A DNA stretch of 64,000 nt from a virus (IMGVR_UViG_3300021431_000075:32001-96000); one strand, 5' to 3'. Positions 24,573 to 63,732 are shown, counted from the stretch's first letter. Program-made: numbers and translations. Notes: generated by a model not told the origin, from the letters alone.

Positions 24573-25823
24573 TTATTTGAAACCGAATTTTGAAAGACAT
24601 CTGGTTATAGTTGCATCATCAGCATATTTGCTTTCGCTGTTGCATATCTGGTCAACCATATCCTGTTTCTGTTCCTGAGTGACATTCAAGTTATTCTTGA
24701 CAAAACTCAGCATCCTTGTTATAGATTCTTCTGTGTGTTCATAGTCAATGACACAAACGATAGCAACATATTCCTTTATATCATTAAAAACAGTTCCACG
24801 AAGATACAGATAAAGCACATTCGTGTCTTTTGGAAAAACATCATAAACATCTCTGCTTAATTGAACAGCCTTGACAAGAACATTGTTATTTCTTATCCTG
24901 TTCATCGTCCTGTCGCACAAATCCTGCATAACATCAACATCGACTCCTGTATTTTTCCTCAAAACAGCAAGTTCCAGTCGCTGATTCTCGTTGTTATATG
25001 ACGCATCAAATGCGACTTTATGAACAGGCTCCACAAACAGCACCCTGTCAAAATTACAATTCGGCTTCATGCGGACATCCGTCAGCATGTGTTTTTCATT
25101 AATATAAACCGAGTGGTTTTCTCCGCAAAATTGATGATAATAACCTTTATATGTATAACTCCGAACAAGATATTGTCCCAAACCTCCTGTACCGAAATAA
25201 GTGAACAGCCTATATGCTTTTGAAGTCAAATATCTGGACTTTGCATTTCTATAATCATAATCAAAACTAAACCCGGTATATGTCGCACTCGAATCTCGGT
25301 TAACATTACCAACAATACCAAACCCGTCTATATCAAGTTTTGTACCGTATATTTTTTTCAAACTGTGAATATTTTTTTCCAAATCGTCAAAGAACCGGAC
25401 AACCTCTTCATATCTCATATGACACTTCAATCTAACATAGAAATAAAAAACTTGCGTTGAAGGTTTTTCAAGTTGTTCTAAAGTGGCATAAGAGTGATAT
25501 ACAATACCCCCCAATTCCAACTTGTTATACTTATCTTTTGATTCTATATCCGTATCAACAGTCAGAACTATCTTTGAATACTCATATATGCTGAATTTAC
25601 TATCGAGCAAGGAACATAAGCATCTTGCAGCATACTCGACCTTGTAATTAAGGTCGTCTATGCTGTCATGTGAAATGGAAATATGGACTGACAATATAGC
25701 ATCATAGTCGTCATCATGCGGAAAGTCATCTACAAACAATCCGTCATTCGCATTATCATCAACAACTTCTTCAACATCAACAGAAGAAAGCATATCCTCG
25801 TTTATCGTCAACAACTTACTCAT
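24573..25823 (-). CDS. Array member: leader-family protein without WG repeats
   Basis: TINEDMLSSVDVEEVVD leader, then YDAILSVHIS-type first strand. Confidence 0.8.
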   Translation of the reverse strand: MSKLLTINEDMLSSVDVEEVVDDNANDGLFVDDFPHDDDYDAILSVHISISHDSIDDLNYKVEYAARCLCSLLDSKFSIYEYSKIVLTVDTDIESKDKYNKLELGGIVYHSYATLEQLEKPSTQVFYFYVRLKCHMRYEEVVRFFDDLEKNIHSLKKIYGTKLDIDGFGIVGNVNRDSSATYTGFSFDYDYRNAKSRYLTSKAYRLFTYFGTGGLGQYLVRSYTYKGYYHQFCGENHSVYINEKHMLTDVRMKPNCNFDRVLFVEPVHKVAFDASYNNENQRLELAVLRKNTGVDVDVMQDLCDRTMNRIRNNNVLVKAVQLSRDVYDVFPKDTNVLYLYLRGTVFNDIKEYVAIVCVIDYEHTEESITRMLSFVKNNLNVTQEQKQDMVDQICNSESKYADDATITRCLSKFGFK

Positions 25824-27067
25824 TTGTTATCATTGCTCAATTTTCTATATAGTTCTCCTCTAAAGCCCGGTTCTTTTGCATAAATCGAAGAAATGACAAA
25901 ATCAACAAAATTACGCTTTATCTCATCATTGTTTTCAGAAAGCATGAACGGCTTTACGAATCTTGCAACTTCATCAACCCTGGCGTCACAGCTCAATTCA
26001 ACAGCAACAATGTAGAAAACCTCACAACCATCATCCATCAACGTGTTCGGAATCAAATATGCAACAGCGATAGAGTCTTCAAGAGAAACATCAAAAACAA
26101 ATGAAAAGAAAACAGGCTGCCTGTATGTTCTGATAACTTTACCAAGACGTTCTCTGATTGCATTTTTGTCAGATATTTCTTCTTGAGACTTTAAATATCT
26201 AACATCCAGTTCAGTACATGCGACTTTATCATTCATCACAATTGATTCAAGAACATCCTTAGTTAATGAATGATAACCGAAAGGCTTTCTTGATTGTTTA
26301 TGCTGCAGCATGTCAAGCGGTCTTGACAAACACCAGAACGGGCACATATTCATAAAGGACTCTATAACTGGAAACTTGCCGCCGTTATTCTCTGCAAAAA
26401 TCTTCAGCAATGAAGGAAATATCTGCTCGTTCTCCGGGATGAGCATCCGAATCGTGTCGTACAATTCTACATTATATCTGTCAAGTTCAATAAACTTGGT
26501 GAATTTTGTTCGATGAGTATCATGATCCACTTTAATGATCTTGAATTTTATTGCCTCAAGATTTCCACCAAACAGCCCTGTGTACAATCCAAACTTCTGC
26601 AAGAACCTGTATACTTCCCTGGGATTCATAAAGTTCGAATTGAATCCGACATTCATCATAGATTCAAAACGCCAGTTCATTCTCGCCCAGTTCAAATCTT
26701 TATCCAGTTCATTTGGTTTTCCATTCAATGCATTGTCAAGATATTCTTCAGACGGGACACACTCTTCAATCAGCATCGGAGAAATGATAGCGCAGGAATA
26801 GTCGTCAATCGCCATCGTGCTTCCGAATATCCGTTCTGTTGCGTTATTAAGAATCTTGCGACCGGTAGAAGTGTCAAGAATATCAAACAAACTCTCATAT
26901 ATATTTCCGTTAAATGTACGATTTCCGTTCTTATTCTTCCAATGCAAAAGAATACAAAAGACATAATCATAAGAATCATAAAAACTCTTATAACCATTGT
27001 CGCTATCAGAAACATCTTCAACTTCGACCTCTCCGAACAGATTTTCATTCAATATACCTGTATGCAT
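25820..27067 (-). CDS. Array member: leader-family protein without WG repeats
   Basis: ILNENLFGEVEVEDVSD leader, then YDYVFCILLH first strand. Confidence 0.8.
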   Translation of the reverse strand: MHTGILNENLFGEVEVEDVSDSDNGYKSFYDSYDYVFCILLHWKNKNGNRTFNGNIYESLFDILDTSTGRKILNNATERIFGSTMAIDDYSCAIISPMLIEECVPSEEYLDNALNGKPNELDKDLNWARMNWRFESMMNVGFNSNFMNPREVYRFLQKFGLYTGLFGGNLEAIKFKIIKVDHDTHRTKFTKFIELDRYNVELYDTIRMLIPENEQIFPSLLKIFAENNGGKFPVIESFMNMCPFWCLSRPLDMLQHKQSRKPFGYHSLTKDVLESIVMNDKVACTELDVRYLKSQEEISDKNAIRERLGKVIRTYRQPVFFSFVFDVSLEDSIAVAYLIPNTLMDDGCEVFYIVAVELSCDARVDEVARFVKPFMLSENNDEIKRNFVDFVISSIYAKEPGFRGELYRKLSNDNK

Positions 27068-28530
27068 TTGTAATACAAAAGATCGTCTATTTTTTTATTA
27101 TTTTTACACCAGCCGTACACAAAGTTTCCATGACGATCAAGAACATCATACTCTTCTTTATCATTGTAAACAACGAAAAAGTCATTCCTATCGTGCCGTT
27201 TACAATCTTCATTGAACCAGACAGAATTGAACCAGACGTCACTCAAATAGCCATTCTCCATATTGAAGATTCTCGCTTTCCTATTCTTCTCAACCATCAC
27301 AAACATGCCATCTGGAGTTGATGGAACGTCTTCTTCCACTCGGTCAAACCACTCGTCAGAAACAACTTTGCCATCGATTCCAATATAATTCCATCTCTTA
27401 TTGCCATTGATTATTTTTAGAACCAATACATAACTTGTATGAAAACCCAGATCGTAAACATCGTTTTGACTTATCAAATCAAACCAATCTTTCGATAGAA
27501 GTTTGAACGACTTGGTAATAATGTTATATGCCGGCTGCTTTTCTCTCTTTATGAGTGCAAAGTCTCCTATAAACGCTGTTGCTTCTTCAAATGCAACTCT
27601 AACAATAGGCTTTCCATCCACATCAATATAGACATATTTGCCATCAGTCGGTCTCCTAACGACAGCAATGCCGTCATAGAATCCGCTTGCTTTCAAAAAC
27701 CAGATATTCGGAAGCATCACAGATTTATCCTTGACATAATTAAAATAACCACCAAAATAAACAACATCTCTTTTTTTGGCATTATCTTTTATATAATCAA
27801 AACCGAGGGCATTCTTGGTCTTGGCATCTTGAACGGCAAGTCTCGCATTCATCTCCATCGTCAATAGATGAAACCACTCATTCATCCCAAAGTCTCTTCC
27901 AGTAACAGCTTCATAGAATCCCTGCAAGTTGATTTCAGGAATAGCTTCAGTCTTAATCAAAAAGAGCGTATTGTTGCTGTACATCTTATTGAACTCGTCA
28001 CGACTCAAGTCATATTCAGAGAATGCGGTCATATAATTGACCTGAAATGAGAAGTTTTTTCCAAACGTGTTAAAAATCTTCCATACGAAACTGACCGCGC
28101 TCCTGATACTTACTTGTTCTCGTTTTATTCCAAAGACAGCCAGCAACTCCCGACTTCCAATATATTGTCTGACGGAATCGCCAAAATTTGTATATATTTT
28201 CACTCCGGAAACTTCAAACTGACGAAACGTTTCAAGCATTCGAACAACATTATTCACATAAGGCGAAAAATTAGAAGATTCCAATAAACCGAAAAACTTG
28301 TATTCATAAAAACTCGTAGTCATATCAACAATATTAACAAGGTCGGTAAATTCTCTGGAACCAATGATTCTCTCATAAAAATCAAATCTTTCCTCTGAAC
28401 CTTTTGCAGAACAATCAATATGGACACACAGAATGAAATCATAATTTCTGACATCATTCTCGTCAATGCCAGAATCATCCAGAACGTCATCAAGCTCAAT
28501 TTCAGTCAACAGACTGTTTTGCTCTTTCAT
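27049..28530 (-). CDS. Array member: leader + N-domain + short WG-like repeat tract
   Basis: Start reassigned to ATG 28530 (MKEQNSLLTEIELDDV), behind GATAAATA at 28557-28564. Repeats such as WNYIGIDGKVVSDEWFD. Confidence 0.8.
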   Translation of the reverse strand: MKEQNSLLTEIELDDVLDDSGIDENDVRNYDFILCVHIDCSAKGSEERFDFYERIIGSREFTDLVNIVDMTTSFYEYKFFGLLESSNFSPYVNNVVRMLETFRQFEVSGVKIYTNFGDSVRQYIGSRELLAVFGIKREQVSIRSAVSFVWKIFNTFGKNFSFQVNYMTAFSEYDLSRDEFNKMYSNNTLFLIKTEAIPEINLQGFYEAVTGRDFGMNEWFHLLTMEMNARLAVQDAKTKNALGFDYIKDNAKKRDVVYFGGYFNYVKDKSVMLPNIWFLKASGFYDGIAVVRRPTDGKYVYIDVDGKPIVRVAFEEATAFIGDFALIKREKQPAYNIITKSFKLLSKDWFDLISQNDVYDLGFHTSYVLVLKIINGNKRWNYIGIDGKVVSDEWFDRVEEDVPSTPDGMFVMVEKNRKARIFNMENGYLSDVWFNSVWFNEDCKRHDRNDFFVVYNDKEEYDVLDRHGNFVYGWCKNNKKIDDLLYYKCIQVY

Positions 28531-28601
28531 TAAAAACGAAAAAACCAAGATTTTTGTATTTATCTTAATTAAGCGTTTTTTTAGCAAATCACAAACAATC
28601 A

Positions 28602-30326
28602 TCAATCATATACAAATGCAAGTCCCGTATCCTCGATATTGACTAACTCGCCAGTCTCTTTATTAAAAACATTCCCAGAATAGTCAACTGCATAATCATG
28701 ATAACTAACGCCACAATAATGTCCATAGGTGTACTCCGACAACCAAATCAACCAGAACTTCAATAACTTTTTGCCGTTAACATCCATATAGTTATAATAC
28801 GCGACACCATTGAACTTCTTTGCCACAAGAATGCGTCCGGAAACAAAACCTTCAGTTGACGGTATTATCGTCCTGTCGTTGATTATCTTCTTTCCGTCAT
28901 AGCCAACAAAATCAAGTCCTTCTGAATCATAAACAATCGCGCGGCCGCACTTAAACTTATGGATACTATAGAACCAGTCCTTGCATAACATGTTTCCATT
29001 CCGGTCCATAAGGTTAAAATTACCATCCGAATCTTGCACTCTCATAGATTCACATCCCTTGGATGAACCGGAATCCTGACTCAAATCACAAATATAAATT
29101 TCGCTGATTTCTTTATCAAAGATAAGTTTCCTGTCAGACTTCCGGAAAACATTCTTGCGCTTATTGAGATATTCAACAATAAGCAAGTCTGGAAACTCGT
29201 CGGAAGAAACAATTTTTTCACAACGCTCGTCAAGCACTGCATTGAAATCTCTATCAATGATATTGCTTGTTCTCTGATATGTTCCATCAAGATACGAAAC
29301 AACCGCAAATCCATTATCAAATTCCGAATCAACACAATAGAACGACTCTTTGCATGCTCTTTTTCCGCTCTTATCAATAAAAGTCCATCCCGATTTTGGA
29401 ACATCAACAGCAGCAACACCTTCTGAAAATAACCGAGCGTTCACGAACCAGCAATTCGGAACAAGAACTTCATTGTTTTCATCCACGAAATTGTACATAT
29501 CGCCAAACCTAACAATCGACAATCCGCTTTCTCCACCATCTGAAACAACGACTCCATGAACACTTTCATCTTCATTTCTGCTTTCGGAACCAAACAAACC
29601 AAGCCGCAACTCGACTTCCCTGGAAAATATAACGCTCTGTGCCTTGTTAAAGATTTCATTCGATGAATCCAAGTTCAGCAAACGCATATAGAATCTACTT
29701 ACATTTTCAGCTTGATAAAAAAGCCTGTTTTGCTCATCATCTTTGTCCCATCTAAAGTAATTACGAACGATATGTCTCATCGGATTTAGCGAACTTTTAT
29801 TTTCTAAGTCCACTTCATCAGCCTTTTGTATAGTTATTCCGTACAAATCACAACTGTTCCTTTGCTCATATATGTTGAACCCGGTCTGAAAAATCAGACG
29901 TATCATCTTATGGATAACCGAAATTTTTCTGAATGAACAATCCAGTCCGAAAATAACATATCTTGTCTGTGTATTCTTACCGCCATAGTAGTAATTGATT
30001 GGGTCGGTCCGCACGATGTTGTCACCCTTAACAAAATCAAGCAAATACAAATCAAACGTTCCGTAAACAATAAAGCAAGCGTTTATGCTCGTCACTTCGA
30101 CATTGTAATTAATGATGTCATAAACACGTTCTATCAAAATGTCAAGAGCCTTGTCATTCGGCATCCTGTCATCATTTCCCTTGACTGTCAATGAAAGAAC
30201 ATATTTGCTTGCACCCATCCTTTCGAGATCAGTACGCTCATCATTGTCATTAACCTCATCGGCATAAAGGTTGTCGAAAAGTTCCTCAGACAAGACCTTA
30301 ATCTTATTTCTTCCAGCACCAGCCAT
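28602..30326 (-). CDS. Array member: WG-like beta-repeat protein
   Basis: VLSEELFDNLYADEVND leader; FSEGVAAV...WTFIDKSG repeats. Confidence 0.85.
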   Translation of the reverse strand: MAGAGRNKIKVLSEELFDNLYADEVNDNDERTDLERMGASKYVLSLTVKGNDDRMPNDKALDILIERVYDIINYNVEVTSINACFIVYGTFDLYLLDFVKGDNIVRTDPINYYYGGKNTQTRYVIFGLDCSFRKISVIHKMIRLIFQTGFNIYEQRNSCDLYGITIQKADEVDLENKSSLNPMRHIVRNYFRWDKDDEQNRLFYQAENVSRFYMRLLNLDSSNEIFNKAQSVIFSREVELRLGLFGSESRNEDESVHGVVVSDGGESGLSIVRFGDMYNFVDENNEVLVPNCWFVNARLFSEGVAAVDVPKSGWTFIDKSGKRACKESFYCVDSEFDNGFAVVSYLDGTYQRTSNIIDRDFNAVLDERCEKIVSSDEFPDLLIVEYLNKRKNVFRKSDRKLIFDKEISEIYICDLSQDSGSSKGCESMRVQDSDGNFNLMDRNGNMLCKDWFYSIHKFKCGRAIVYDSEGLDFVGYDGKKIINDRTIIPSTEGFVSGRILVAKKFNGVAYYNYMDVNGKKLLKFWLIWLSEYTYGHYCGVSYHDYAVDYSGNVFNKETGELVNIEDTGLAFVYD

Positions 30327-32680
30327 TAAACATATTCAATCATTTTTCCATCAAAACCGACAGTATTCTTGCAACAACCAATTTTGACTTCTATCTTATT
30401 TTCGTCATAGTCTATATCATAACCATCAACAAAATCATCAAGAAGCAAAGTGCCGTCTGTCTTCATAAAGTTGAATTTATTATCATCATTCATAATGACA
30501 AACATCTGGGTTCTCTCATCAAACATCACACAGTCTTTAAACCAAGTGTCTGATATGATTTTTGCCGTCTTTTTATTTATAATGTTTACTTCTGATTCTG
30601 ATTTGGTTACAATACAATATTCTGCAGAATTAAGCTTGTTTTCAATCCGAACTGATGAATCAAACAAGACTTTTCCATTTCTGTCTATTACTGTATACTT
30701 GCCGTTCAGCACAACTACAGCAACATTGCCTATAAACGTTGATGTATGTTCAAACCAATCATCAGATAATAGTTCTCCGTCCGGCTTCATATAGTTCTCC
30801 TTAATATGACTCTTGTCAAAAACTCGTGCAAAACCGTTTATGAAAGATGTACCATCATATAACCATTCATCCACCAAAAGAGAGCCATCCGGCTTTAGAT
30901 AATTGATTCTGCCATCACCATCACGTCTGGCAATCTTTGCAAATCCTTCTTTAAAATCTTCACCTTCTGAAAAAACAACATCAGTTATCAAATTTCCTTT
31001 TGTATCAATATAGTTTCTCTTGCGAGCTGAAGTCTTGACATATGCAAATCCTTCTGAAAATTCTCTACATTCAATGAACCAGTCATCTGATATGTAGTTT
31101 CCATGTTCATCTATAAAATTATAAACCTTATCCTTCCTCACGCGCATAAGACCATCATGGAACTCGCCAGTCATATCGCTATTGCTATCAAACCATTCTT
31201 CCGACAACTCCTTGTTTGTTTCAAGATTGACAAAATTCACCCTATAATTCTTGTCTATTACTCTGATAAATCCGTCTTGAATCTTACCACATAAGTAATA
31301 CCATTTGTTCAGCAAGTATTTCCCGCTATAGTCCATTATATTTTCTTCGTCATTCTTGTCCACTCTGACAATTTCATTTACATCATCAATAGAAGCACCG
31401 GAATACTCTTCTCCGTTATTCAGAAATTCTCCATTTCTATTGATTACACAAACAGAATTTCGTTGTCTATCATTGACTACCAATGCACATTCTGGCACTT
31501 TGAAACAATATGCAGTTTCAAACCATTTGTTTGACAACAGTTTCCCGTCAAGACCAAGATAATTCTCTTTTCTTTCCTTATTATATACTACAGCGAAACC
31601 ATTTACAAAACTGTCTATATGTGTAAACCACATTTTGGATGGAATTTTATAGTCTTTATTAACATAGTTATATTCATTGTTTCTCTTGACGATTATATAA
31701 TCAACATCGCCAATTGTAAAATCATCGCCAGCATTGTGTATACAAACTTCATCAAACGGCTCTTTAAAAAGAGAATTGCAATCCTTATCAATGAAATTCC
31801 ATTTATTCTGTTTTGAATTTGCATCATATACATTGACACAAGCATAACCGTTCTCAAAACCACCATTCAAAACATCTTCGAAATTTTCATCTGAAATCAT
31901 ATTGCCGTTCATGTCTATAAAATTATATGCAGTCCATCCATTCTTTCTATATTCTACTAATCCATATCCTTCTTTAAAAACATGAATATCTTCAAAATCT
32001 TCATTTGTCAATATGTCTCCATTATTGTTTACCAGTCTCCAGCGAAATTGATCCCTAATTTTATACAACCCGTTCTCGGCATCAACGCAAAAGAATCTGC
32101 CATACCTAATCGCGCTTGCAATATAACTCCGATATGCGGCATCATCATCTACAGATGGAAGAAAACTCTTATAGAAATTGACAATATTCGTCTTTTCTGC
32201 AAATACATCATGTTTTGACGGATACTCAAAATACGCTTTCTCTCTCGTATTCGGAGAACCGCTAAACGTAATCACTATTCTACTGTTAGAATCTGTATCT
32301 CTATTTGCATTATCACACCCGGAGTTCACTTCTATAACATCGCACATCGCGAACAGAAACGCATTGAAGTACCTCAACACTCCGAAAGATGCTGAAAACT
32401 TAATATTCATAGTAAGCAACTTATCCGGACAATCAACAACAACCTCATCAAACGAGTCTATAACCCGTCTAACATCCTTCTGATATTCAAGAAATGCAGT
32501 CATCTTACGTTTCATGTTATTAATAACATACATTCTTGGACCAATCTTATTAGAATTGATTCTACTTTTCACTTCCAAGTCATACTCCTGTCCTTGAGAG
32601 TCATCAACAATATCTTCTACTTCATCAGCATCAACATCGCCAAGAAGATTCTCGTTCAAAATATATGGTCTCCAATTCAT
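30326..32680 (-). CDS. Array member: WG-like beta-repeat protein
   Basis: YILNENLLGDVDADEVED leader; many N-[FY]-I-D-x-x-G...W-F repeats. Confidence 0.9.
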   Translation of the reverse strand: MNWRPYILNENLLGDVDADEVEDIVDDSQGQEYDLEVKSRINSNKIGPRMYVINNMKRKMTAFLEYQKDVRRVIDSFDEVVVDCPDKLLTMNIKFSASFGVLRYFNAFLFAMCDVIEVNSGCDNANRDTDSNSRIVITFSGSPNTREKAYFEYPSKHDVFAEKTNIVNFYKSFLPSVDDDAAYRSYIASAIRYGRFFCVDAENGLYKIRDQFRWRLVNNNGDILTNEDFEDIHVFKEGYGLVEYRKNGWTAYNFIDMNGNMISDENFEDVLNGGFENGYACVNVYDANSKQNKWNFIDKDCNSLFKEPFDEVCIHNAGDDFTIGDVDYIIVKRNNEYNYVNKDYKIPSKMWFTHIDSFVNGFAVVYNKERKENYLGLDGKLLSNKWFETAYCFKVPECALVVNDRQRNSVCVINRNGEFLNNGEEYSGASIDDVNEIVRVDKNDEENIMDYSGKYLLNKWYYLCGKIQDGFIRVIDKNYRVNFVNLETNKELSEEWFDSNSDMTGEFHDGLMRVRKDKVYNFIDEHGNYISDDWFIECREFSEGFAYVKTSARKRNYIDTKGNLITDVVFSEGEDFKEGFAKIARRDGDGRINYLKPDGSLLVDEWLYDGTSFINGFARVFDKSHIKENYMKPDGELLSDDWFEHTSTFIGNVAVVVLNGKYTVIDRNGKVLFDSSVRIENKLNSAEYCIVTKSESEVNIINKKTAKIISDTWFKDCVMFDERTQMFVIMNDDNKFNFMKTDGTLLLDDFVDGYDIDYDENKIEVKIGCCKNTVGFDGKMIEYV

Positions 32681-32704: not shown

Positions 32705-34465
32705 TTAAATGAATGTCACAACTCTGCAATCCCTATCAACAAATCTATCATAACCGATTCTGAATAAACCGTCTTTATATATGGCAAGTCTCTCTCCAAT
32801 CCAATCATTAAACAAAAATGTGCCATCTGCAAGAATGCAATTATAAGAGTCATCTTTCTTAACAATCGCGACACAATCCTCATAACATTCAACTGCTTGC
32901 ACGCTGCTTATAAAAGAGATGTCATCAAAAGTTATTTCTGAAAGCTTCTTACCTTCCGAATCAATTATTATATACATGCCAAGGTTTTCACTATTGCTAA
33001 TGATGGCATATCCACGGTCGTTGAAATTCTGCGCATATGAACACCAATCTTTCAGCAACGGCTTGCCGTCCTTCTTGATGAAATTTACATTTCCTTCATA
33101 GTCAATGACCATCCCGAAACCGTTTGTAAACTTGCTGCATATCTCATAATCACCACTAACTTTCTCTCCTTTATCATTTATATAGTGCTGTGAAAAATGT
33201 CTTTTTACGATAGCCATTCCTTCTGAAAAATCATCATAGATATTATTTAACCTGTCCTTGCCGTTCTTCCATATCTTCTTGCCGTCATATCTAATGTAAT
33301 TCACATATCGTCTACCGTCCTTGCCGCTATATTCTATTTTTGCAAACCCGTCAGAAAAATTCCCACAGTCGCCATTTAAACTCTTATCAAATAAAAGATT
33401 TCCTTTTGTATCCAAATAGTTGTATTTCCTGCTTATAGTTCCATCGCTTTCAATATCATCTATTGCTACTCTTGAATAACCATCATAAAATCGTTCACAA
33501 CTAAAGAAACGCTTGCTTGTCAATTCTTTTCCATTATAATCAAGAACCGTCCATCCGTCTTCATCTTTTACAGAAGCAAACCCATTAATATAACTTTCAC
33601 AAGACAACCACCCACTTGAAATCAAATTTCCGCTTGTATCTATATGACCGTATAAATCATCATTCAATTTGACAACAGCACGCCCATTACAAAAGACATT
33701 TGCAGATTTGTACCATTCAGAAGATATATATTCACCATTCTTGTTCACATAATTAAAGGTTTCATCTCTTATAACAAGACACCATCCACAGCTAAAAAAT
33801 GTACAATTATCAACCCAATCATCAAGAACTATGATTCCGTCTCTTGTAACAAGATTCATCTTATTGCCAAATTTGACACGATACAAGTCTTCTCCGCAAC
33901 TATTCATCAAACCGATAACGATAAAACTCTTGACTATGCTTCTAAACACATAATACGGAGAGTTAGAACCACAAAACCCATTATAATGTTCATAATAATT
34001 CTTGTCAATCGTCAACAGTTCATTATTCTTCAAAAGATTGATATTCAACCAATCATCGATTAGAAACATATCGAAGTAATCAAAAAGAGATGCTATGATT
34101 TTAACAATCATCTGATTCAGCACATCAACTGTACAGTTTGCCTTGCTTCCGAACCTGATACAAAGACCGCTCTCATTGTCATTTTTGACATATTCCAGCT
34201 TCTTGTAGCACAATATCTTTCTTCTCTTGACATTTTCAACAAGAACATTCTCAACCAAATCATACAAACCATGATTACTATAGTAATACTCGGGTTCGCA
34301 TTTATAATTGTTTCCGTTTCTTGCATATATTGTAAACTCAAAATCACATTCAGCTTTCATATCGCTGAAATCATCATCAACTTCTTCAAGTTCAACACTA
34401 TCAAGAATATTTTCATACACAGCATCAAAAAATCCGTATCTATTCATCAAAGAAAACGAAAGCAT
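32705..34465 (-). CDS. Array member: WG-like beta-repeat protein
   Basis: VYENILDSVELEEVDD leader; repeats; ends VVTFI. AATAAATA on the minus strand at 34476-34483. Confidence 0.9.
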   Translation of the reverse strand: MLSFSLMNRYGFFDAVYENILDSVELEEVDDDFSDMKAECDFEFTIYARNGNNYKCEPEYYYSNHGLYDLVENVLVENVKRRKILCYKKLEYVKNDNESGLCIRFGSKANCTVDVLNQMIVKIIASLFDYFDMFLIDDWLNINLLKNNELLTIDKNYYEHYNGFCGSNSPYYVFRSIVKSFIVIGLMNSCGEDLYRVKFGNKMNLVTRDGIIVLDDWVDNCTFFSCGWCLVIRDETFNYVNKNGEYISSEWYKSANVFCNGRAVVKLNDDLYGHIDTSGNLISSGWLSCESYINGFASVKDEDGWTVLDYNGKELTSKRFFSCERFYDGYSRVAIDDIESDGTISRKYNYLDTKGNLLFDKSLNGDCGNFSDGFAKIEYSGKDGRRYVNYIRYDGKKIWKNGKDRLNNIYDDFSEGMAIVKRHFSQHYINDKGEKVSGDYEICSKFTNGFGMVIDYEGNVNFIKKDGKPLLKDWCSYAQNFNDRGYAIISNSENLGMYIIIDSEGKKLSEITFDDISFISSVQAVECYEDCVAIVKKDDSYNCILADGTFLFNDWIGERLAIYKDGLFRIGYDRFVDRDCRVVTFI

Positions 34466-54814: not shown

Positions 54815-54942
54815 AGAATTATCATCTTTTATTATTTATCATCATAAATATGAATGAATATTATTGATTGCTTATCAATATCTAATTTGACGCTGTTGAT
54901 AATCCATTTCGGAAGAACTTCCATCAAATGCAAATCTTGTTT

Positions 54943-57111
54943 TTAAATAATGGAAATAAGATTTCCCTTGTTATCAACATAGTTGTCAGCACCGACTCTA
55001 AATACTCCATCTTTGACATATTCAATCACACTGTCAGACCAGTCATCGAACAAAGTCGTCCCGTCAGGAAAAATAATGTTATATTTCTTCTTATAATATG
55101 CAACCTTGAAATAGTCGTCGTAACTATCTATATGAAGCTCGTCAGTTCTCAACCAGTTTTTAAACAAGAACTTACCATTGGAAGAATTCAGGAAATTGTT
55201 TATCATCATGCCATTGACTCTATTCTCAACAACATAAACATTTCCACAACAACCATTTATGTTCATAAACCAATCTTTTGAAACAAGCGTTCCATCAGAA
55301 CGCACAACGTTCCAGAGACCGGATGAGTTTTTTATTCTCGCACAATCATTCTCAAAATCACCAACAATGTATATATCATGCCAATAACCCTTGTCTTTCG
55401 TACTCAATATGTTTCCATTCTTGTCAACTATCTCTTTAAAGTTATTAATGATGACAACTGCACAACCGTTATAAAAATCCGACACAATGCTGTCAATCTG
55501 TATATCGAATAGCAAATTTCCATCACGACTGATAAAATTCGGACTCCCATCCCATCGATTTCGAATACGTGCAAAACCATCACAAAATTCAATAGGCGGG
55601 TTATCCTTATCAAAATATCTTACTTCAACATCCAACCCAAACCATTGATTTGTAATCAATTTTCCGGTAGTGTCAATAAAGTTATATTTCGACATGCCAT
55701 CTTTTGACACAACCAGCGCATTGCCGCCGGAATCAAAATTATAACATTCCCCAAAACCATCCGGTTTCCCGTTCTTGTCAACACACAATACATTTCCGCT
55801 TTCATCAACATAGTTCCATCCAGAAGAATAATACACCCTTGCATACCCGTTGCAAAAATCTCTACACCTACCAACCCATCTATCCAAAAGCAGTTTTCCA
55901 TCCTTTGTATAAAAGTTCCATGCGCCATTGTTGACAACTCTCCACACACCTTCGATTTCGGTTTGTTCAAAAGCATTATCAAAAACATCTTCTGGATACA
56001 AAATCCTGCATTTCTCGTCAACCAAAACAAATCCTTCCTTATCACCAGCGAATTCATCATCAGCATTGCAATAAACCCATCCGAAACCATTTCTGATAGA
56101 CTTGTATGACTTGATTCCTATATTTCCGAACATATCCTTTCCGTCTGCATCCAGAATATGAAAATAACCGCCTTTGTCCTTTACATAATAATATCCGCCC
56201 CGTCTAAAGTCAAGAACACCAAATCCATCTGACAAAATACGACCATGATTATCTATCAAGAATTGTTGATTCTCACTCTTTGGACGAACCACAGCTCTTT
56301 CATTCTCATCAAAAGATGTTCCATATGAATAATATTCTTCTGACAAAAGTTTTCCGCTTCTGTCTATATAATTAACTCCGCCACCATCTGAACTCAAACG
56401 CTGCACCTTCAGCATTCCAGACGAATATGTATTTATATCATTCAAATGAGAATTATCTCTTATAGAGAACAAATCATAACCTCTGGAATCAACAATATGC
56501 ATCATCTCACAATCATCATCCAATCTAACATATATCCTGTATATGTCATCCGAATCGCTTACCCTACATATCAAACCATATGCATTGCCAAGCCGAACAA
56601 CAGTTCTCATTACACTTATTCCCTCACATTCCGGAAACATCTCCTTAAGAGTTAATAAGTTTTTGAATCTCAAAGTCGCATGATTCTTTGTCGATACCCA
56701 GTCAACAGTCAGCCCCATATTTCCATAGTATTCAACATCATCACACTTATTGACAGACACTTCAAAATTATCCAACGAATTGCAATTTCCCTCACAGTAC
56801 AAACAGTACAACATAATCTTGACGACAAATTCTGCTGTAACACACTCTCTCCTGAACTTACAATCTATGATATATTTCCTGATACCACCGGTTGTATCTT
56901 TCTTGTATTCCATAGCAATGTTTCTTTCAATGAGATTATCAAAAAACGCATTGACTTGAACAATAAACCTATCAACAATAAGAGTTCTGTCACAAAACAC
57001 AAAACTTACAGAAATTGCTTCTTTGTTATCATTATCATCAGAAACTTCATCTGTTTCCAATTCTCCAAGAAGCGACTCGTTCATAATGTATGCTGTATTC
57101 ATATTGCTCAT
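54943..57111 (-). CDS. Array member: WG-like beta-repeat protein
   Basis: YIMNESLLGELETDEVSD leader; repeats; ends LISII. Confidence 0.9.
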   Translation of the reverse strand: MSNMNTAYIMNESLLGELETDEVSDDNDNKEAISVSFVFCDRTLIVDRFIVQVNAFFDNLIERNIAMEYKKDTTGGIRKYIIDCKFRRECVTAEFVVKIMLYCLYCEGNCNSLDNFEVSVNKCDDVEYYGNMGLTVDWVSTKNHATLRFKNLLTLKEMFPECEGISVMRTVVRLGNAYGLICRVSDSDDIYRIYVRLDDDCEMMHIVDSRGYDLFSIRDNSHLNDINTYSSGMLKVQRLSSDGGGVNYIDRSGKLLSEEYYSYGTSFDENERAVVRPKSENQQFLIDNHGRILSDGFGVLDFRRGGYYYVKDKGGYFHILDADGKDMFGNIGIKSYKSIRNGFGWVYCNADDEFAGDKEGFVLVDEKCRILYPEDVFDNAFEQTEIEGVWRVVNNGAWNFYTKDGKLLLDRWVGRCRDFCNGYARVYYSSGWNYVDESGNVLCVDKNGKPDGFGECYNFDSGGNALVVSKDGMSKYNFIDTTGKLITNQWFGLDVEVRYFDKDNPPIEFCDGFARIRNRWDGSPNFISRDGNLLFDIQIDSIVSDFYNGCAVVIINNFKEIVDKNGNILSTKDKGYWHDIYIVGDFENDCARIKNSSGLWNVVRSDGTLVSKDWFMNINGCCGNVYVVENRVNGMMINNFLNSSNGKFLFKNWLRTDELHIDSYDDYFKVAYYKKKYNIIFPDGTTLFDDWSDSVIEYVKDGVFRVGADNYVDNKGNLISII

Positions 57112-57127
57112 TGTTTAAAAACCCATT

Positions 57128-59350
57128 TTAAATAAAACTCAACACATTTCCACGTCTGTCAATATAAACACGACCAGTATTGATTTGAAACACACCGTCA
57201 ATATTCGTATCATCTATCTCATCACTACTCATCTTGTCATATAGCAGCGTTCCGTCCGGCTTAATCATATTGTATAGATCATTTGACTTATTATAGATAA
57301 TGACGACATCATCATATGTATGAAAATCGTACTTGTAATCGTCAAGCCATTCATCGAACAATAGATCTCCTGAAGTATTCATAAAATTATACTCCATAGT
57401 TTTTGACTTTGACTGATGTCTACCAACCATACAGACGCTTCCACAAAACTCGTCAACTTCATAGTACCAGTCTTTCGAGACAAAACTTCCATCGGGTCTT
57501 ATGAAGTTAGAATGTCCTTTCTTGTTGACAACCAAAGCGTAACCGTTCTTGAACGGTTCTATCGAAGTTATCATACACTTCTTCTTGATTACAAGTTTAC
57601 CGTTCTTGTCAATAAGATTCTTGCTCCCGTTTCCATCTATAACAACCGCATAACCACTTTCATCAAAATCATAAACCTGCTCGAACCACACATCCGACAA
57701 GACGTTACCTTCAACATCTATATAATTGCCAAAAATCCCACCATCCTTATATTTATATACTCTAACAAATCCTGCACAAAACGGTGTTTTAGAATATACC
57801 ATCCCGTAACCATTAACATAAAAATTCTCTTTTAATATAGACTTTCCTTTCTTGTTGATAAAATCAACATATCTGTCCTCTCTATAAACCATTGCGATTC
57901 CGCATTCATGAAAATCACTACATGAATTAAACCAGACAGGCTTTCCGTTGCTTTGCTTGCAAATGAATTTTCCATTCGTATCAACATAAGTCATCTGGTA
58001 ACACTTGTTCTTATAATCATATTTAGTGACAATAGCACAACCGTTACAAAAAGAATCACAGTCTTCATACCAATCATTCAACAGCAATCGACCTGTCATA
58101 TCAACAAAGTTTGTCTTCTTTCCGCTTACGTTTTTATCATCAATCAATGAAACTATCCAGAAACCTTCTGAACCAGAATCGCTAATCCAATCATACATAT
58201 TGTTCTGAAACAGCAAATGTCCGTTCTTGTCTATGATGCCGTTTCCATTCTTGTCTTGCACTATTGCGCAACCAGAATCATCATCAAGAAAATCACCACA
58301 CTTGGTAAACAACTTATTCGACAACAATCTACCTCTTGCATCAATATAGTTATATTTCTCACCCATACGAACAACAGCATAACCGTTCACAAAATTCTTA
58401 ATCTCAGAAAATTTTCGGTTTGTTATCACTTTACCGCTTGTATCTATCAACGCATAATAATCACTTGTGCTGCCATCTGGTTCTTCACTTTCGATAATGT
58501 TAACTTCAGCAACGCCATAGCTGTCTATAAAATTGCCACAAAATCCACTATAGAAATCTTCTAATATGAAATTTCCGTCCGTATCTATATAATTGTAATT
58601 GAAATCCTTCCTGTTTCCAATTCCGACATCCTTATGGACTAACATCCTGCCGCAATGGTACACAGTATCGAAACATGCATATATATCATCATACTCAAAT
58701 ACAACATCCCCATTCTTTCTGGCTATCATGTACATAAGTTCATCACTTGTTGTTCTTGTAAAGATAAACTTATATAGTTCATTTCCAGTCTCTTTGTTCA
58801 CACAGAACAAAATACCCAACGGCAATGCAACTTTCATGATGCTTTGAATGATACTCTTCTTGCTACAATCCGGAAACAAGATATGGTAAGAATCTATATT
58901 TTTTATACAAAGATAACACTCTGATTTGCGTTCTGCGATGCAGAAAGTCAACCCATTCTGTTCTGTAAAATCAATATCACCAAAGGAACTGACTACAATC
59001 GAAAAATCAAACCTGACTTTTTTAAAACATGTGACATATAGAAGCTTTATAAGAAAGTTGTTAAAAGTGTCGATATTGACATCGGCATCATCAAACAATA
59101 TAGAAAAGTCAAGTCTTTCAGGATTTTTCTTATATTCAAAATTCTGGATAGAACCATACTTGACCTTCGTATTCAGATACTGTTTGATACTATCAACAGT
59201 ATTATACATGAAATAACTGCCTTGAATTGACAAATTGATAACAAACTTTCTATCATCATTATCATACACAACATCTTTCACATCATCCGCTTCCACTTTA
59301 TCAAGAAGCGTCTCGTTCAGAATATATGTTGAATGCATACAGTTCATCAT
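57128..59350 (-). CDS. Array member: WG-like beta-repeat protein
   Basis: YILNETLLDKVEADDVKD leader; repeats; ends VLSFI. Confidence 0.9.
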   Translation of the reverse strand: MMNCMHSTYILNETLLDKVEADDVKDVVYDNDDRKFVINLSIQGSYFMYNTVDSIKQYLNTKVKYGSIQNFEYKKNPERLDFSILFDDADVNIDTFNNFLIKLLYVTCFKKVRFDFSIVVSSFGDIDFTEQNGLTFCIAERKSECYLCIKNIDSYHILFPDCSKKSIIQSIMKVALPLGILFCVNKETGNELYKFIFTRTTSDELMYMIARKNGDVVFEYDDIYACFDTVYHCGRMLVHKDVGIGNRKDFNYNYIDTDGNFILEDFYSGFCGNFIDSYGVAEVNIIESEEPDGSTSDYYALIDTSGKVITNRKFSEIKNFVNGYAVVRMGEKYNYIDARGRLLSNKLFTKCGDFLDDDSGCAIVQDKNGNGIIDKNGHLLFQNNMYDWISDSGSEGFWIVSLIDDKNVSGKKTNFVDMTGRLLLNDWYEDCDSFCNGCAIVTKYDYKNKCYQMTYVDTNGKFICKQSNGKPVWFNSCSDFHECGIAMVYREDRYVDFINKKGKSILKENFYVNGYGMVYSKTPFCAGFVRVYKYKDGGIFGNYIDVEGNVLSDVWFEQVYDFDESGYAVVIDGNGSKNLIDKNGKLVIKKKCMITSIEPFKNGYALVVNKKGHSNFIRPDGSFVSKDWYYEVDEFCGSVCMVGRHQSKSKTMEYNFMNTSGDLLFDEWLDDYKYDFHTYDDVVIIYNKSNDLYNMIKPDGTLLYDKMSSDEIDDTNIDGVFQINTGRVYIDRRGNVLSFI

Positions 59351-59363
59351 AATAGCGTCATTT

Positions 59364-61523
59364 TTAAATATAGTTCACAAGCGTCCCGGTCTTATCTACC
59401 ATAACACCATAACCTATTTCGAATAGGTCTTTATCCTTAATATAATTGATTTTATACGGTCTCCACGATTCACTCAACAACTTTCCGTCAGCAGTAATCA
59501 AATTATATCCATTACCTTTCTTTATGATATGGCAATCACCATATATCGTAATGTTGTTTGCATAATCGGACTCCAGCCATTCTTTCAGAATCAGATTTCC
59601 GTTCCTGTCGATAAAGTTAGTAATTTCATCTTTTTTGCGGTTCACTGCAAGAGTTACTTCACAAGCACCACCATAGAATCCACCGACTCTATAGAACCAA
59701 GTCTTGCTGATGCTCTTTCCGTCAATGCCTATATAGTTGAACTCTCCCTTGGCATTCTTCACACAAGCAAGACCATTAACAAACTTGCTTTCAATCTGAA
59801 CTTTCTTTCTGAATAAGATTTTACCAGAAGTGTCCACGCAACATGACTTTCCATCAATCTTGATAACGGCATAACCGCCACTAAAAACACATTCTATATC
59901 ATCACACCACTCATCCATCAAAAAAGTTCCATCTTTTCTGAAAAAATTATGCTTCATGGCATTCCCGTATTTTTTACAAACAGGAGCCAACCCGTCATTG
60001 AATGAAGAACTTCCGTCCAAGTTCACTCCCCAATAACGTTCAAAATGCACAGGAGATATGTATTTTCCGTTCGTGTCTATGAAATTCTCACAGTCGCCGC
60101 TAAAATCACTTATAATTACCTTTGCTATTCCATCTTCATCAAAGAAACTGCAGTTCTTGAACCAAACAGGACGACCATTTCTTTCACATACATAATTTCC
60201 GGCCTTGTCTATGAATGTCATCTCTCGTTGATTCTCAATTAATCCGTACCCATTTAAAAAACCACGGCACTTATCTACCCACTCGTCATTACCCGGCAGA
60301 TATGTTCCATCTTTTGTTATATAAGTCTCTTGTGTTGGAAGGCCTCCGTTGCTTTCATTTCTTCTCAGAATAAACACATCCTCGGACACACTGATGATTT
60401 TAACATCAGATTCTTCTGTATGAAACAATATATTTCCGCTTGTGTCTATAATACCTCTTCCATCATCATCAACAATAATTGCATAACCAGATTCAAAATG
60501 AATTGCCTTTGAAAACCATTTGTTCGGAGACAACACTTTTCCATATATGTCAATATAGTTATATTCTCCATCATAATTCTCAACGACAAAATAACCATCA
60601 TGGCTGAAACTATCAATATACTGATATCTATCTTCTGTGATGATTTCTCCTTTCGTGTTCATCAAACCCATAGATAGATCGTTAAATGTCACGACTGTAA
60701 CTTGCTCATAATATGAAAAATCTAAAGCACTACTAAAAAACTCATTAGATATGTAGTTTCCATTTATATCTATAAAGTTCCATCCCTTATTCTCTTGGGA
60801 ATATACTTTCAACAGACCGCAATTAAAAACATTGTTTGTCAATCCGCTTTCTCCCAATCTAACACGTTCTTTATATATTACTTTACCGTCTTTGTTAACA
60901 ACCAACCGTTCCCCCCATTTTACCAGATTTTTGTCTCTTTCATAATATACACAGAAACGATATACCTTATTTCGGGGTTCCAGACAATCACATAAACCGT
61001 ATTTGGACATAATGGTTCCGATACTAAAATAGACATCATTCATCGAAATATCCGGAAACAATTCTGCATATATGTTCAGATTCATCAACAAGACTCTGGT
61101 TGCATAGAATGAACATTCAACCGACAGAGCATCATCATTATATACTCTATCATCTATTTCTGTAACTCTCATTCTAAAAACCAATCCACAACTATCGAAT
61201 ACAACAGCAAGCGTCTTGAACATGATAGAGTTAAACAAATCAATATCAACCCTGTCGTTATATAGAAAGATAACTATGTCAATCCCCGCACCATTCCTAA
61301 ATCTTGAGTAATTTAGATTTATATTATAGCGCTCTATATATTTTCCTTCAACAAATGAATCAAATATATTATTTAGGACACTGAGAATTTCATCCTTCTT
61401 GGAATCGCCGACATTTAATGACAAAACAATCTTAAAACTGCCGTTCTTCTCATGAACTTCATCAACGTCAACTTCATCAAGAAGCGTCTCGTTCAACATG
61501 TATATCTTGTTTCTTTTCATCAT
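59364..61523 (-). CDS. Array member: WG-like beta-repeat protein
   Basis: YMLNETLLDEVDVDEVHE leader; repeats; ends LVNYI. Confidence 0.9.
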   Translation of the reverse strand: MMKRNKIYMLNETLLDEVDVDEVHEKNGSFKIVLSLNVGDSKKDEILSVLNNIFDSFVEGKYIERYNINLNYSRFRNGAGIDIVIFLYNDRVDIDLFNSIMFKTLAVVFDSCGLVFRMRVTEIDDRVYNDDALSVECSFYATRVLLMNLNIYAELFPDISMNDVYFSIGTIMSKYGLCDCLEPRNKVYRFCVYYERDKNLVKWGERLVVNKDGKVIYKERVRLGESGLTNNVFNCGLLKVYSQENKGWNFIDINGNYISNEFFSSALDFSYYEQVTVVTFNDLSMGLMNTKGEIITEDRYQYIDSFSHDGYFVVENYDGEYNYIDIYGKVLSPNKWFSKAIHFESGYAIIVDDDGRGIIDTSGNILFHTEESDVKIISVSEDVFILRRNESNGGLPTQETYITKDGTYLPGNDEWVDKCRGFLNGYGLIENQREMTFIDKAGNYVCERNGRPVWFKNCSFFDEDGIAKVIISDFSGDCENFIDTNGKYISPVHFERYWGVNLDGSSSFNDGLAPVCKKYGNAMKHNFFRKDGTFLMDEWCDDIECVFSGGYAVIKIDGKSCCVDTSGKILFRKKVQIESKFVNGLACVKNAKGEFNYIGIDGKSISKTWFYRVGGFYGGACEVTLAVNRKKDEITNFIDRNGNLILKEWLESDYANNITIYGDCHIIKKGNGYNLITADGKLLSESWRPYKINYIKDKDLFEIGYGVMVDKTGTLVNYI

Positions 61524-61536
61524 TCATTACTTCATT

Positions 61537-63732
61537 TTAGACAAAAGACAAGAGATTTCCAGTCCCATCGACATAAAAAACATTGTCTATTCGATAAACA
61601 AAACTATCGCCGTTTTCAACAGGAACAATCTTTATTCCACTCCACTCTCCATAAAAAAGAAGCTTTCCTTTGGATGTAATCATATTCCACTGCGGAGCGT
61701 TCTCGCTATCACACAAGATAATACTATCCACATAAGTGTTTATATTGAATCTTCCACTATTGAACCATCTTTTCCCAAGTATGAACTTTCCGTTCGTGTT
61801 ACAAAAACTATATTCTTTTGATTTGCCATTTTCATTATATTTGGATACTTCAAATACACTGATATTCTCAAATCTGGTTATCGTTTCATACCACTCTTTC
61901 AAAACAAGCGTTCCGTCTGTCCTGATGCAATTCCATTTTCCATCATAACTTTGAACCCGCGCGATTCCGTCTATAAAAACGTCAATCTTTGAATATTTCG
62001 AATAGTCAGAATGAACCATGACACCATACTTGTCTATAATGCCAAGATGATTGTCAATCTTCACTACAGCATATCCATTTTTAAAATTCGTTTCAACTCC
62101 ATCAAACCAGAATTTTGACAGAATCCTCCCTGTTCTGTCAATAAAATTGAATTTTGTTATAAGATCATTTTTCTTATCCGTCACAATAGCAAAGTCTTCA
62201 GAGAACTGCGACACAGACAAATCAATACCAACTCGCTTGTCAAACCACTTTCTTGAAATCAGATTTCCTGACTTATCTATGAAATTCATCTTGTTATTTC
62301 TAAGCACTATCGCGTTTCCGCCTTCATCAAAGCAACCACAATCAGTAAACCATTCCGGCGTACCGTCATCTTTCTCACACAGCACATCTCCTTTCATATC
62401 AATGAAAGTATATCCGAATTTTGAATTGCAAATCCACATCAGACCGTTATGAAAACTGTTTCCATACCCATAAAACCAGTACTTTGATAAATACTTTCCC
62501 TTCGTATTTACCAGATTGTTGCAATTCCCATCACTATGATTCTTATCCCTCACAATCCATAATCCATTGCCTACTCTTGATATGGCGTTAAACTTCTCTG
62601 ACTGAAATAGAATCTTCCCTTTATTGTTACAAACACCTATTCCGTTACTGTTTGAAATAATTCCATACCCATCATCATCAAAATCTTCACAACTAAAATT
62701 GTTCCCAGTAAGCAACTCGTTGCCAGTTGCATCTATATAATTATAACCACCATCCTCATACTCAACTACAGCAAATCCGTTCGAATATTGATTTATAACC
62801 TTATAGTTATTATCAGCAATAAGATTTCCTTTTCCATCAACCAATCCAACACTATTATCTTCAAAGAGCCGGACGATAACTCCATTGGCTGTAAAACCCA
62901 CAATATCCTTAAAAGACTTGTTGACAAACTTTCCATCCCGGTTCATAAGATAGTATTCGTTCTTTTGGAAAGAATATACGGCAAGCAAACCGTTATGAAA
63001 CAAATCAAATTTGTCAGCGATCATCAAGGACTTCACCTGAAACTCATATATGATTTCTCCATTCTTTCTAAGAATCAATCTTCTAATATTAGCTTCATCA
63101 TAATATACGATATACTCACCATCATGCTCTCTTACAATATAAAGATGATATATGTCATATTCTCTGTCTATACACCTTGTCAATCCATATTTCGCAGATG
63201 CCTTGACAATACTTGAAAGATACTCCGTTTCCGATATGTTTGGAAACATATTCTTATACTCATTCGTATTGACAATCAGAATTGCTTCTTTTGAATTAGT
63301 ATTATCAATGTATAACTTTTTTACAAAAGTATCATCATCTATGAACTTTTCAACACTCAAGCCAAATGTGAAGTATTCTTTCATTATAGCAATGATACAG
63401 AACAAGACTTCATTAAACAACTGCACATCAAGATATGATTTGTCAATCCACAAATGAATATTCGCATTTATAAGGTCCAATTTCTCAATATCGTACTTAT
63501 GAACAATATCGCGCTTTTTTAAAAAATCAAAGTAACTTTTGATTCTTTCTTCGACTGCATATGGAAACGCCCGTCGTCCATCCATGTCAATACGCATCAT
63601 AATGTAAACACAATCATCCTCGTTGAAGTAATCGTCGCTATCTTCAACCTCATCAGAGTCAACCTTACTCAACAAGTTCTCATGGAGTGCATCATCAACT
63701 TCGTGCCAGTATGTTTCAATATCTTCATTCAT
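61537..63732 (-). CDS. Array member (first gene): WG-like beta-repeat protein
   Basis: ALHENLLSKVDSDEVED leader; repeats; ends LLSFV. Confidence 0.9.
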   Translation of the reverse strand: MNEDIETYWHEVDDALHENLLSKVDSDEVEDSDDYFNEDDCVYIMMRIDMDGRRAFPYAVEERIKSYFDFLKKRDIVHKYDIEKLDLINANIHLWIDKSYLDVQLFNEVLFCIIAIMKEYFTFGLSVEKFIDDDTFVKKLYIDNTNSKEAILIVNTNEYKNMFPNISETEYLSSIVKASAKYGLTRCIDREYDIYHLYIVREHDGEYIVYYDEANIRRLILRKNGEIIYEFQVKSLMIADKFDLFHNGLLAVYSFQKNEYYLMNRDGKFVNKSFKDIVGFTANGVIVRLFEDNSVGLVDGKGNLIADNNYKVINQYSNGFAVVEYEDGGYNYIDATGNELLTGNNFSCEDFDDDGYGIISNSNGIGVCNNKGKILFQSEKFNAISRVGNGLWIVRDKNHSDGNCNNLVNTKGKYLSKYWFYGYGNSFHNGLMWICNSKFGYTFIDMKGDVLCEKDDGTPEWFTDCGCFDEGGNAIVLRNNKMNFIDKSGNLISRKWFDKRVGIDLSVSQFSEDFAIVTDKKNDLITKFNFIDRTGRILSKFWFDGVETNFKNGYAVVKIDNHLGIIDKYGVMVHSDYSKYSKIDVFIDGIARVQSYDGKWNCIRTDGTLVLKEWYETITRFENISVFEVSKYNENGKSKEYSFCNTNGKFILGKRWFNSGRFNINTYVDSIILCDSENAPQWNMITSKGKLLFYGEWSGIKIVPVENGDSFVYRIDNVFYVDGTGNLLSFV

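Follow-up and report, generated by a model that had tools for sequence, protein, structure and literature searches.

Why would a bacteriophage keep some fifty large and highly divergent repeat proteins, and where would such proteins act? The question is raised by a 64,000-nucleotide stretch of viral DNA (IMGVR_UViG_3300021431_000075:32001-96000, hereafter the window), which corresponds to bases 32001–96000 of a virus record that is 673,114 bp long and ends in direct repeats. Positions refer to the window unless prefixed G000, which denotes whole-genome coordinates. Under the standard genetic code the window has long open frames throughout, and its minus strand carries, at 24573–63732, a tandem array of 17 intact open reading frames (ORFs) of 415–784 amino acids (aa) together with one 5'-truncated remnant. 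Every intact protein of this array begins with the same short leader, which recurs far beyond the array. We propose that the leader could be a capsid-targeting and prohead-protease signal like that of phage T4, and the proteins late, head-loaded binders; judged from sequence, this proposal stands about as good a chance of being right as of being wrong.

The leader, x-Y-h-[LIM]-N-E-[STDN]-L-L-x-x-V-[DE]-x-[DE]-[DE]-V-x-D (h, hydrophobic), is found at the start of 17 of the 17 intact window genes. A leader profile retrieves 54 ORFs genome-wide, which amount to 32,262 residues or 14.4% of the genome. The leader is nearly always at the extreme N-terminus (one ORF call puts it at residue 112), and its [LIM]-N-E lies at residues ~5–30 of the 54 ORFs, non-repeat cargoes included. 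Arrays of leader genes are located at 11–27, 52.6–95.7 (this window), 208–226, 287–293, 302–326 and 362–366 kb of the genome, with single genes elsewhere. About 44 members show the full family plan, with a conserved C-terminal end (...G..R[IV]G....VD..G..[VI]S.[IV]-stop), and the leader also stands on ~9 unrelated bodies, two of these at 20674–23261 (+); it therefore behaves as a portable tag. The non-repeat leader cargoes that were scanned have no match in PHROGs or Pfam. A preliminary description of this DNA had taken the array as the unit of interest: the block is real, but it is one of several, and the true hallmark of the family, which that description missed, is the leader, present on non-repeat cargoes as well. 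A secretion signal was considered for the leader and dropped, its N-terminus not being hydrophobic and the leader itself being acidic.

Searching 1.84 billion representative proteins with a profile of the leader plus the N-terminal domain (N-domain) yielded 1,924 matches at E ≤ 0.001, of which 216 reach E ≤ 1e-10. The leader is present in 81 of the best 150 library representatives, and most of these are 25–97% identical to family members encoded here, which means that the family occurs in related phages as well. Among the 81 library proteins the glutamate is kept in 77, the LL pair in 72–75 and the D-E-V-x-D stretch in 70–79. That a degenerate DNA pattern of the leader had no match in viral contigs means little, as the record itself and its near relatives may be missing from that set and many relatives turned up in the protein library. 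Six WG-repeat proteins of the library (P0023, P0045, P0070, P0071, P0083 and P0123) have another N-terminal motif, [IL]-[TN]-E-S-Q-E-S-K-S-[IM]..A.+L, which opens with hydrophobic-x-Glu and, from its sequence, may be a further tag of this type.

The h-N-E element of the leader reappears in two proteins of head assembly. The genome encodes a gp21-family prohead protease of 612 aa (G000 624491–626329, minus strand), which scores 31.6 bits against Peptidase_S77 (PF03420; cut-off 27) and matches PHROG 207 at E 9e-29 in hmmscan of the protein; a whole-genome search with the PF03420 profile did not return it. Where a rough composition estimate predicts ~1 [LIVMF]-N-E site, the protease chain contains six. 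Four of these read h-N-E-S, and those at residues 174, 190 and 247 lie just past the profile-matching region. Beyond this N-terminal profile-matching stretch the protein continues as a long, highly charged tail, which, from its sequence, may act as a fused scaffold. Proteases of the gp21 family cut after Glu, at L/I-x-E in T4 (PMC9026906) and at A-x-E in SPN3US (PMC5694885).

The second protein is a gp23-like major capsid protein, which matches the T4 gp23 family and is encoded just below the window, at G000 29977–32100. About 55 residues past its likely start it reads AKLNE|DAF, with identical letters in the phage Lak-B1 and MVNE|DAA in a 76%-identical relative; T4 gp23 sheds a 65-residue propeptide (PMC9026906). 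A phmmer comparison of the capsid protein with PDB sequences gave no match, so that the LNE corresponds to the T4 cut by approximate position only.

A second leader, ~MRKQNKRALYESIMRDVAKVVKRRLNE, is found on ~15 small proteins and terminates exactly in LNE, or in INE in its Lak-A1 copy. Some of these proteins carry WG repeats, as does the 253-aa protein at 14085–14846 (+), whose leader reads NNRALYESIMKDVAKVIKRRLNE. Further second-leader sites are at G000 10217, 301885, 303076, 322404, 561285, 562151 and 660035–662354, and the genes have a near-identical upstream region in common, gcaATAAATAaacaaaatgcatttttt. The proteins of the genome contain 127 LNE tripeptides where 65 would be expected, and 47 of the 127 fall within a protein's first 45 residues. 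A complex prediction pairing the full 612-aa protease with leader residues 1–45, given as a family alignment, returned a score of 0.01, from which no verdict follows.

The arrays begin at promoter-like motifs of a late type. The genome contains 262 copies of the heptamer ATAAATA, for instance at window 63782–63788 and 51600–51622, and 119 genes have a copy no more than 70 nt ahead of their start. Twenty of 53 family genes belong to these 119, as do the genes for the protease and for the tail sheath (PHROG 34521, E 6e-87). At array heads the motif reads ATAAATA(TCTTATAATA), and the longer form present there, ATAAATATCTTATAATA, is carried by ~35 copies. The T4 late promoter is TATAAATA, close to ATAAATA. 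A sigma-70 promoter scan gave 90 sites versus 79.7 in shuffled sequence, which is no excess, and is not informative for this host.

Taken as a T4-like system, these features would fit the following course of events. Like the capsid-targeting sequence of T4, the leader would draw the protein into the core of the assembling prohead, where the gp21-type protease would cut after the Glu of h-N-E, leaving the cut family proteins inside the head with the DNA. Ejection at infection would then carry the proteins into the Prevotella-like host, where each would bind a host target of its own; alternatively, they might act inside the head. What the sequences themselves show is the anatomy, the number of members, the late-type promoters, the protease gene, the h-N-E held in common and the evolutionary pattern; targeting, cleavage, ejection and binding are steps that we infer. 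In T4, short capsid-targeting sequences load diverse internal proteins (IPI, IPII, IPIII and Alt), which are cut by gp21 and ejected; the sequence works on foreign cargo as well, IPI* inhibits a restriction enzyme of the host, and T4 relatives differ in their cargo sets (PMC9026906). The present family resembles these proteins in its short N-terminal tag on unrelated or divergent proteins, in the h-x-E, in the gp21-family protease, in a gp23-like capsid protein with a propeptide, and in a cargo that varies among relatives (PMC9026906).

Several points weigh against head loading. The phage is uncultured and known here from sequence alone. Residues that target T4 proteins precede the cut; here the conserved S-L-L-D-x-V-E-x-D-E-V-x-D follows N-E, and 5–25 unconserved residues precede it. 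Around ten library relatives are annotated as starting no more than three residues from N-E. Were the cut to fall after LNE, the mature protein would keep the acidic motif, and the scheme therefore differs from the T4 model. If ejected, beta-rich proteins of 55–90 kDa would need to pass a narrow tail channel, while the T4 internal proteins are small and basic, and fifty-four cargo species would have no precedent. The late-promoter reading draws on the likeness to T4 TATAAATA and on an association with two structural genes, and some of the coincidences may be due to chance because LNE is only three residues long.

These same features bear on an alternative in which the proteins would be late cytoplasmic binders that are never packaged. 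Their leader would dock them to a common partner (for example a chaperone, a factor for degradation or localisation, or the basic second-leader proteins), and their field of action would be host or phage processes at a late stage of infection. A leader whose conserved part lies after the putative cut fits this alternative, being ill-suited to a removable signal of the T4 type, and the repeat-protein expansions of large viruses are usually cytoplasmic. Left unexplained, however, are both the h-N-E common to the tag, the capsid propeptide junction and the protease linker and the exact LNE ending of the second leader, and expression late, alongside virion genes, is odd timing for countering host defences. 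We consider cytoplasmic binders unlikely, and favour head loading over ordinary cytoplasmic effectors because the leader h-N-E matches the capsid propeptide junction and the protease linker and because the arrays start at late-type promoters.

A bolder form of the head-loading proposal would see in Lak-related megaphages a general address-label system with two types of h-N-E leader; in the present lineage from ruminant guts it would serve to fill the capsid beforehand with about fifty different beta-propeller binders, which are injected with the DNA. They would form a strain-variable arsenal, directed against host defences or serving takeover, that acts before any phage gene is expressed. We offer this only tentatively and think it rather unlikely.

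What the tagged proteins might bind with is suggested by their repeats. A repeat hidden Markov model (HMM) built from the family finds 2–11 repeats per gene in 16 of the 18 window genes, with the consensus NKYNFIDKDGNLLSDEWFDDCSDFFEGGAAVVKKDNG. The WG_beta_rep family of Pfam (PF14903; gathering score 25.6 bits) is matched above cut-off by nine window members, at 28.6–61.5 bits; the others reach 16.5–19.5 bits or are unmatched. A conserved W-G dipeptide is not seen, as the consensus reads NKYNFIDKDGN... and the position is mostly [YWF]-N; the profile match holds regardless. The preliminary description had reported repeats in sixteen genes, the [WYF]-N replacement and membership of WG_beta_rep, all of which our HMMER searches bear out; its further assignment to the KWG Leptospira repeat (PF07656) finds no support, as this family is not listed for any member in Pfam-A scans at E ≤ 0.01. 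Repeats are absent from the two genes at 24573–27067, for which no paralogue was detected either.

An AlphaFold2 model of the 740-aa member (57128–59350, minus strand), computed on 44 paralogues, has a mean predicted local distance difference test (pLDDT) value of 83. It shows a disordered leader (residues 1–30), an alpha/beta, ferredoxin-like N-domain (35–175) and an all-beta, propeller-like body (190–740). Foldseek relates the body to beta-propellers (2ymu, LRP6, WD40) with probability 1.0, but with whole-chain template modelling (TM) scores of 0.1–0.3, and its viral look-alikes are uncharacterised phage proteins and WD-repeat proteins of giant viruses. Folded alone, the N-domain reaches a pLDDT of 82 and has no match in the PDB by Foldseek at E ≤ 0.001; VIA-align places it among generic ferredoxin-like or ACT-like folds (Z 7–8.8), from which no function follows. 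As modelled, a family protein thus consists of a disordered acidic leader, a variable ferredoxin-like domain, a beta-propeller-like WG-repeat body and a conserved C-terminal strand, and the modelled body is probably a binding surface.

The capsid protein also indicates what kind of phage this is. It is 71–73% identical, over 93–100% of its length, to those of Lak-A1 and Lak-B1/B5/B8, and on this sequence evidence the phage is related to the Prevotella Lak megaphages. Public sequencing runs holding the stretch are sheep, goat and bovine gut metagenomes, with no RNA run among them. Neither Lak-A1 nor Lak-B1 (542 and 548 kb) has a match to WG_beta_rep or to the leader-plus-N-domain profile; the family is therefore a lineage-specific expansion, and its ~97 kb make up most of the size difference from the ~540-kb Lak phages. 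By its sequence, the genome shows no clear sign of TAG recoding, unlike published Lak phages: TAG ends 82 of 598 ORFs, read-through past TAG is barely longer than past TAA or TGA, one TAG follows the conserved C-terminus of a family member, and the capsid gene lacks the in-frame TAG that the Lak-B1 capsid gene has.

The expansion is old, given how little the paralogues resemble each other: neighbouring array proteins are 21–32% identical, the best paralogue of each window member is 24–30% identical, and the genome-wide maximum is 52%. A recent burst of duplication was considered and dropped on these values. The close relative L020, a contig of sheep-gut type with 93.5% DNA identity, has the same genes in the same order. 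Its family orthologues show a ratio of nonsynonymous to synonymous substitution rates (dN/dS, or omega) of 0.18–0.42; ten flanking genes give 0.07–0.39 (median ~0.15). Taken region by region, the family values are 0.68 in the leader stretch, where sites are few, 0.28 in the N-domain and 0.31 in the repeats. Gene-wide positive selection was not detected against L020, and the substitution patterns indicate that orthologues in this close relative correspond one to one and are under purifying selection.

Over longer distances the picture changes. In the distant relative L035 the flanking NT5C gene and a 114-aa gene are 67% and 74% identical, while array members at the same position are 31–36% identical. 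Three L035 neighbours all best-match one gene of this array, two foreign genes have been inserted, and an array resembling the one at 304–317 kb lies on the other side. The inserted non-family genes (L035 12373–14788) share the N-terminus MAKYLKLF.THTQYETYING.DAV.PNVSYCE. Natural variants also document loss. The remnant in the window retains only residues 469–691 (51680–52348) of a protein whose intact 691-aa orthologue is represented in the library by P0057, and in one goat-gut contig 51660 is followed directly by 54940, the remnant and the adjacent mobile element both being absent. Other, long-range contig joints (for example 50763 to 60748 and 43092 to 59596) were not used, their short sides being 22–24 letters at 85% likeness. 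By the L020, L035 and natural-variant comparisons, members are conserved in the short term and replaced, duplicated or lost in the long term, faster than their surroundings.

These patterns agree with the preliminary description of very divergent paralogues with intact frames; lineage-specific duplications and losses are seen in the distant relative, and the goat-gut contig has no remnant. Its interpretation as a binder library survives in part. A maintained set of different binders fits the repeats, the one-to-one orthologues under purifying selection and the change that is faster than in the flanks.

The same comparisons bear on another alternative, in which the proteins would be loaded into the head but play a structural part, as an internal body, a core or a DNA-organising mass for a very large capsid, like the inner body of phiKZ or family B of SPN3US. 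This draws on the same head-loading evidence as our preferred proposal. The heads of giant phages do hold paralogous families of unknown function (PMC5694885), and purifying selection (omega 0.18–0.42) together with conserved N- and C-terminal ends would suit assembly contacts. Yet Lak-A1 and Lak-B1, whose genomes have no match to the family, build capsids for ~540 kb; identities of 31–36%, when flanks are at 67–74%, are unexpected for the parts of one body, and so is loss or truncation in natural variants. A purely structural role thus seems to us improbable. That the proteins might instead be alternative receptor-binding or tail-fibre proteins, whose common N-terminus anchors them to the virion while a variable beta-propeller recognises host surfaces, is highly improbable: a conserved N-terminus, a variable body and late expression are the usual plan of such proteins, and tail-related and adhesin-like rows appear further down the BFVD structural list, but a leader of ~20 residues that is acidic and predicted to be disordered is unlike a folded anchor domain, two non-repeat window members had no match in a PHROGs scan that did not include WG-repeat members, and no known phage comes anywhere near fifty-four receptor binders.

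The array itself is compact. Its genes overlap by 1–19 nt or are separated by gaps of 12–119 nt, save where insertion sequence (IS) elements intervene. The lower edge is marked by a hairpin with a 14-bp stem (24537–24567, no strand assigned) between convergent genes. At the upper edge, on the minus strand, a terminator-like hairpin with a T-run (~63801–63843) closes the upstream operon and is followed by the late-type promoter-like motif ATAAATATCTTATA (~63775–63788) ahead of the array. The confirmed ORFs, spacing and boundary hairpins show that the coordinates and counts of the preliminary description were right, including 18 co-oriented minus-strand loci, tight packing and all three boundary features. 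Two corrections concern the array itself: the gene thought to be interrupted by an IS is a remnant whose N-terminal 468 residues are gone, not displaced, and the block contains two different IS607-like elements rather than one.

Transcribed from the upper edge, the minus-strand genes begin with a 731-aa member (61537–63732), followed by members of 719 aa (59364–61523), 740 aa (the modelled protein) and 722 aa (54943–57111). IS607-like element 2 (52357–54630, minus strand) and the truncated remnant (51677–52348) come next, and then members of 693 aa (49507–51588, with ATAAATATCTTATAATATA upstream at ~51600–51622), 693 aa (47429–49510) and 681 aa (45391–47436). Below IS607-like element 1 (42825–45270, minus strand) lie members of 706 aa (40705–42825, with a TTG start abutting the element), 678 aa (38644–40680), 641 aa (36706–38631), 717 aa (34535–36688), 586 aa (32705–34465, with its own upstream ATAAATA promoter-like motif), 784 aa (30326–32680, with 11 repeats and a PF14903 match above cut-off) and 574 aa (28602–30326, 3 repeats). 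The next member (27049–28605, 2 repeats) is listed with 518 aa, but its TTG start is probably too far upstream because the leader begins at residue 23. The array ends with the two leader-bearing genes that lack WG repeats and paralogues, of 415 aa (25820–27067) and 416 aa (24573–25823).

Element 2 is a typical IS607 pair, comprising a Resolvase and MerR/HTH_17 serine recombinase (54025–54630) and an OrfB_IS605/Cas12f1-like_TNB TnpB (52357–54009). Element 1 has a Resolvase match only: next to its serine recombinase (44571–45203) is a 479-aa ORF (43076–44515) without a family match and unrelated to the other TnpB. It lies between genes, directly after an ATAAATA (45271–45277), and the downstream gene is now TTG-started; the element is absent from contigs of three other runs, which connect 42823/42824 with 45269/45271. 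At the spot of element 2, L020 has another IS607-type element (16730–19092), whose TnpB is only 30% identical over 103 residues. In all, three different IS607-type elements occur within the array or next to it, and two that are unrelated occupy one inter-gene spot in two related phages.

Outside the array, the two further leader-bearing genes on the plus strand (20674–23261) encode proteins of 426 and 436 aa without repeats or family match. The first 24,000 positions of the window also contain glycosyltransferase-like genes (4502–6193 and 10915–11700), an endolysin-like gene (7041–7931), a topoisomerase II large subunit gene (16023–17963), a DNA methyltransferase gene (18758–19531) and a PhoH-like gene (19802–20608). 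Megablast of this region against GenBank phages gave no match.

How does the family compare with what is known? Searches of the literature for WG repeats in phages, for this leader or for paralogue expansions in Lak phages found none. The statement in the preliminary description that no phage system of such architecture had been described needs qualifying, as the T4 internal proteins and the 20-member head family of SPN3US are close functional precedents (PMC9026906, PMC5694885). Unlike the T4 internal proteins, which number 3–4, are basic and measure 8–20 kDa, this family has ~54 members, repeat proteins of 55–90 kDa, and an acidic tag whose conserved part lies mainly after the putative cut. 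Family B of SPN3US comprises 20 paralogous head proteins found in heads by mass spectrometry (PMC5694885). Like family B and like the inner-body proteins of phiKZ and 201phi2-1, ours consists of divergent paralogues in large tandem arrays accompanied by a T4-like protease of a type that cuts after Glu (PMC5694885). It is unrelated to family B in fold and sequence, as judged from the absence of PF12699 in Pfam scans (family B sequences were not compared directly), is two to three times larger and has a uniform leader, and its location in the head would be inferred rather than measured.

With the bacterial WG_beta_rep proteins (PF14903) of Bacteroidota and others the family shares the same repeat of 35–37 residues, and Bacteroides thetaiotaomicron is a control genome matching the family. 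The phage proteins differ in that WG is mostly [YWF]-N and in having the leader, the ferredoxin-like N-domain and the fixed C-terminal strand. The bacterial proteins have neither a known function nor a solved structure, and PMC8078820 lists them among the families that lack a structure. As in the ankyrin, BTB-WD40 and MORN expansions of giant eukaryotic viruses, divergent copies of a repeat scaffold take up a large share of the genome, and BTB/WD-repeat proteins of Mimivirus and Megavirus and a MORN-repeat protein of Marseillevirus are among the structural matches of this family. Host domain, repeat type and biology differ, and the eukaryotic virus families have no common N-terminal address tag. 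The family is thus set apart from known systems by its WG scaffold, its size (~54 members of 55–90 kDa), the chemistry of its tag and where that tag stands with respect to the putative cut.

These findings bear on why megaphage genomes are so large, since ~97 kb belong to one tagged family without a counterpart in Lak-A1 and Lak-B1. Should its role prove only structural or cytoplasmic, the family would still be the largest repeat-protein expansion that we found described for a phage in the literature searched. If the tag is a head-loading signal, the capsid-targeting principle of T4 would extend to a distant, uncultured clade, the tag would offer a natural, portable means of packaging foreign proteins into phage heads, and the WG_beta_rep scaffold would gain its first functional setting. 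Capsid cargo could then be a major and evolvable compartment of phage–host conflict. The leader-tagged set may be carried in the virion as a large collection of binding proteins, and an arsenal of 54 binders, if real, would be the protein counterpart of carrying many anti-defence genes.

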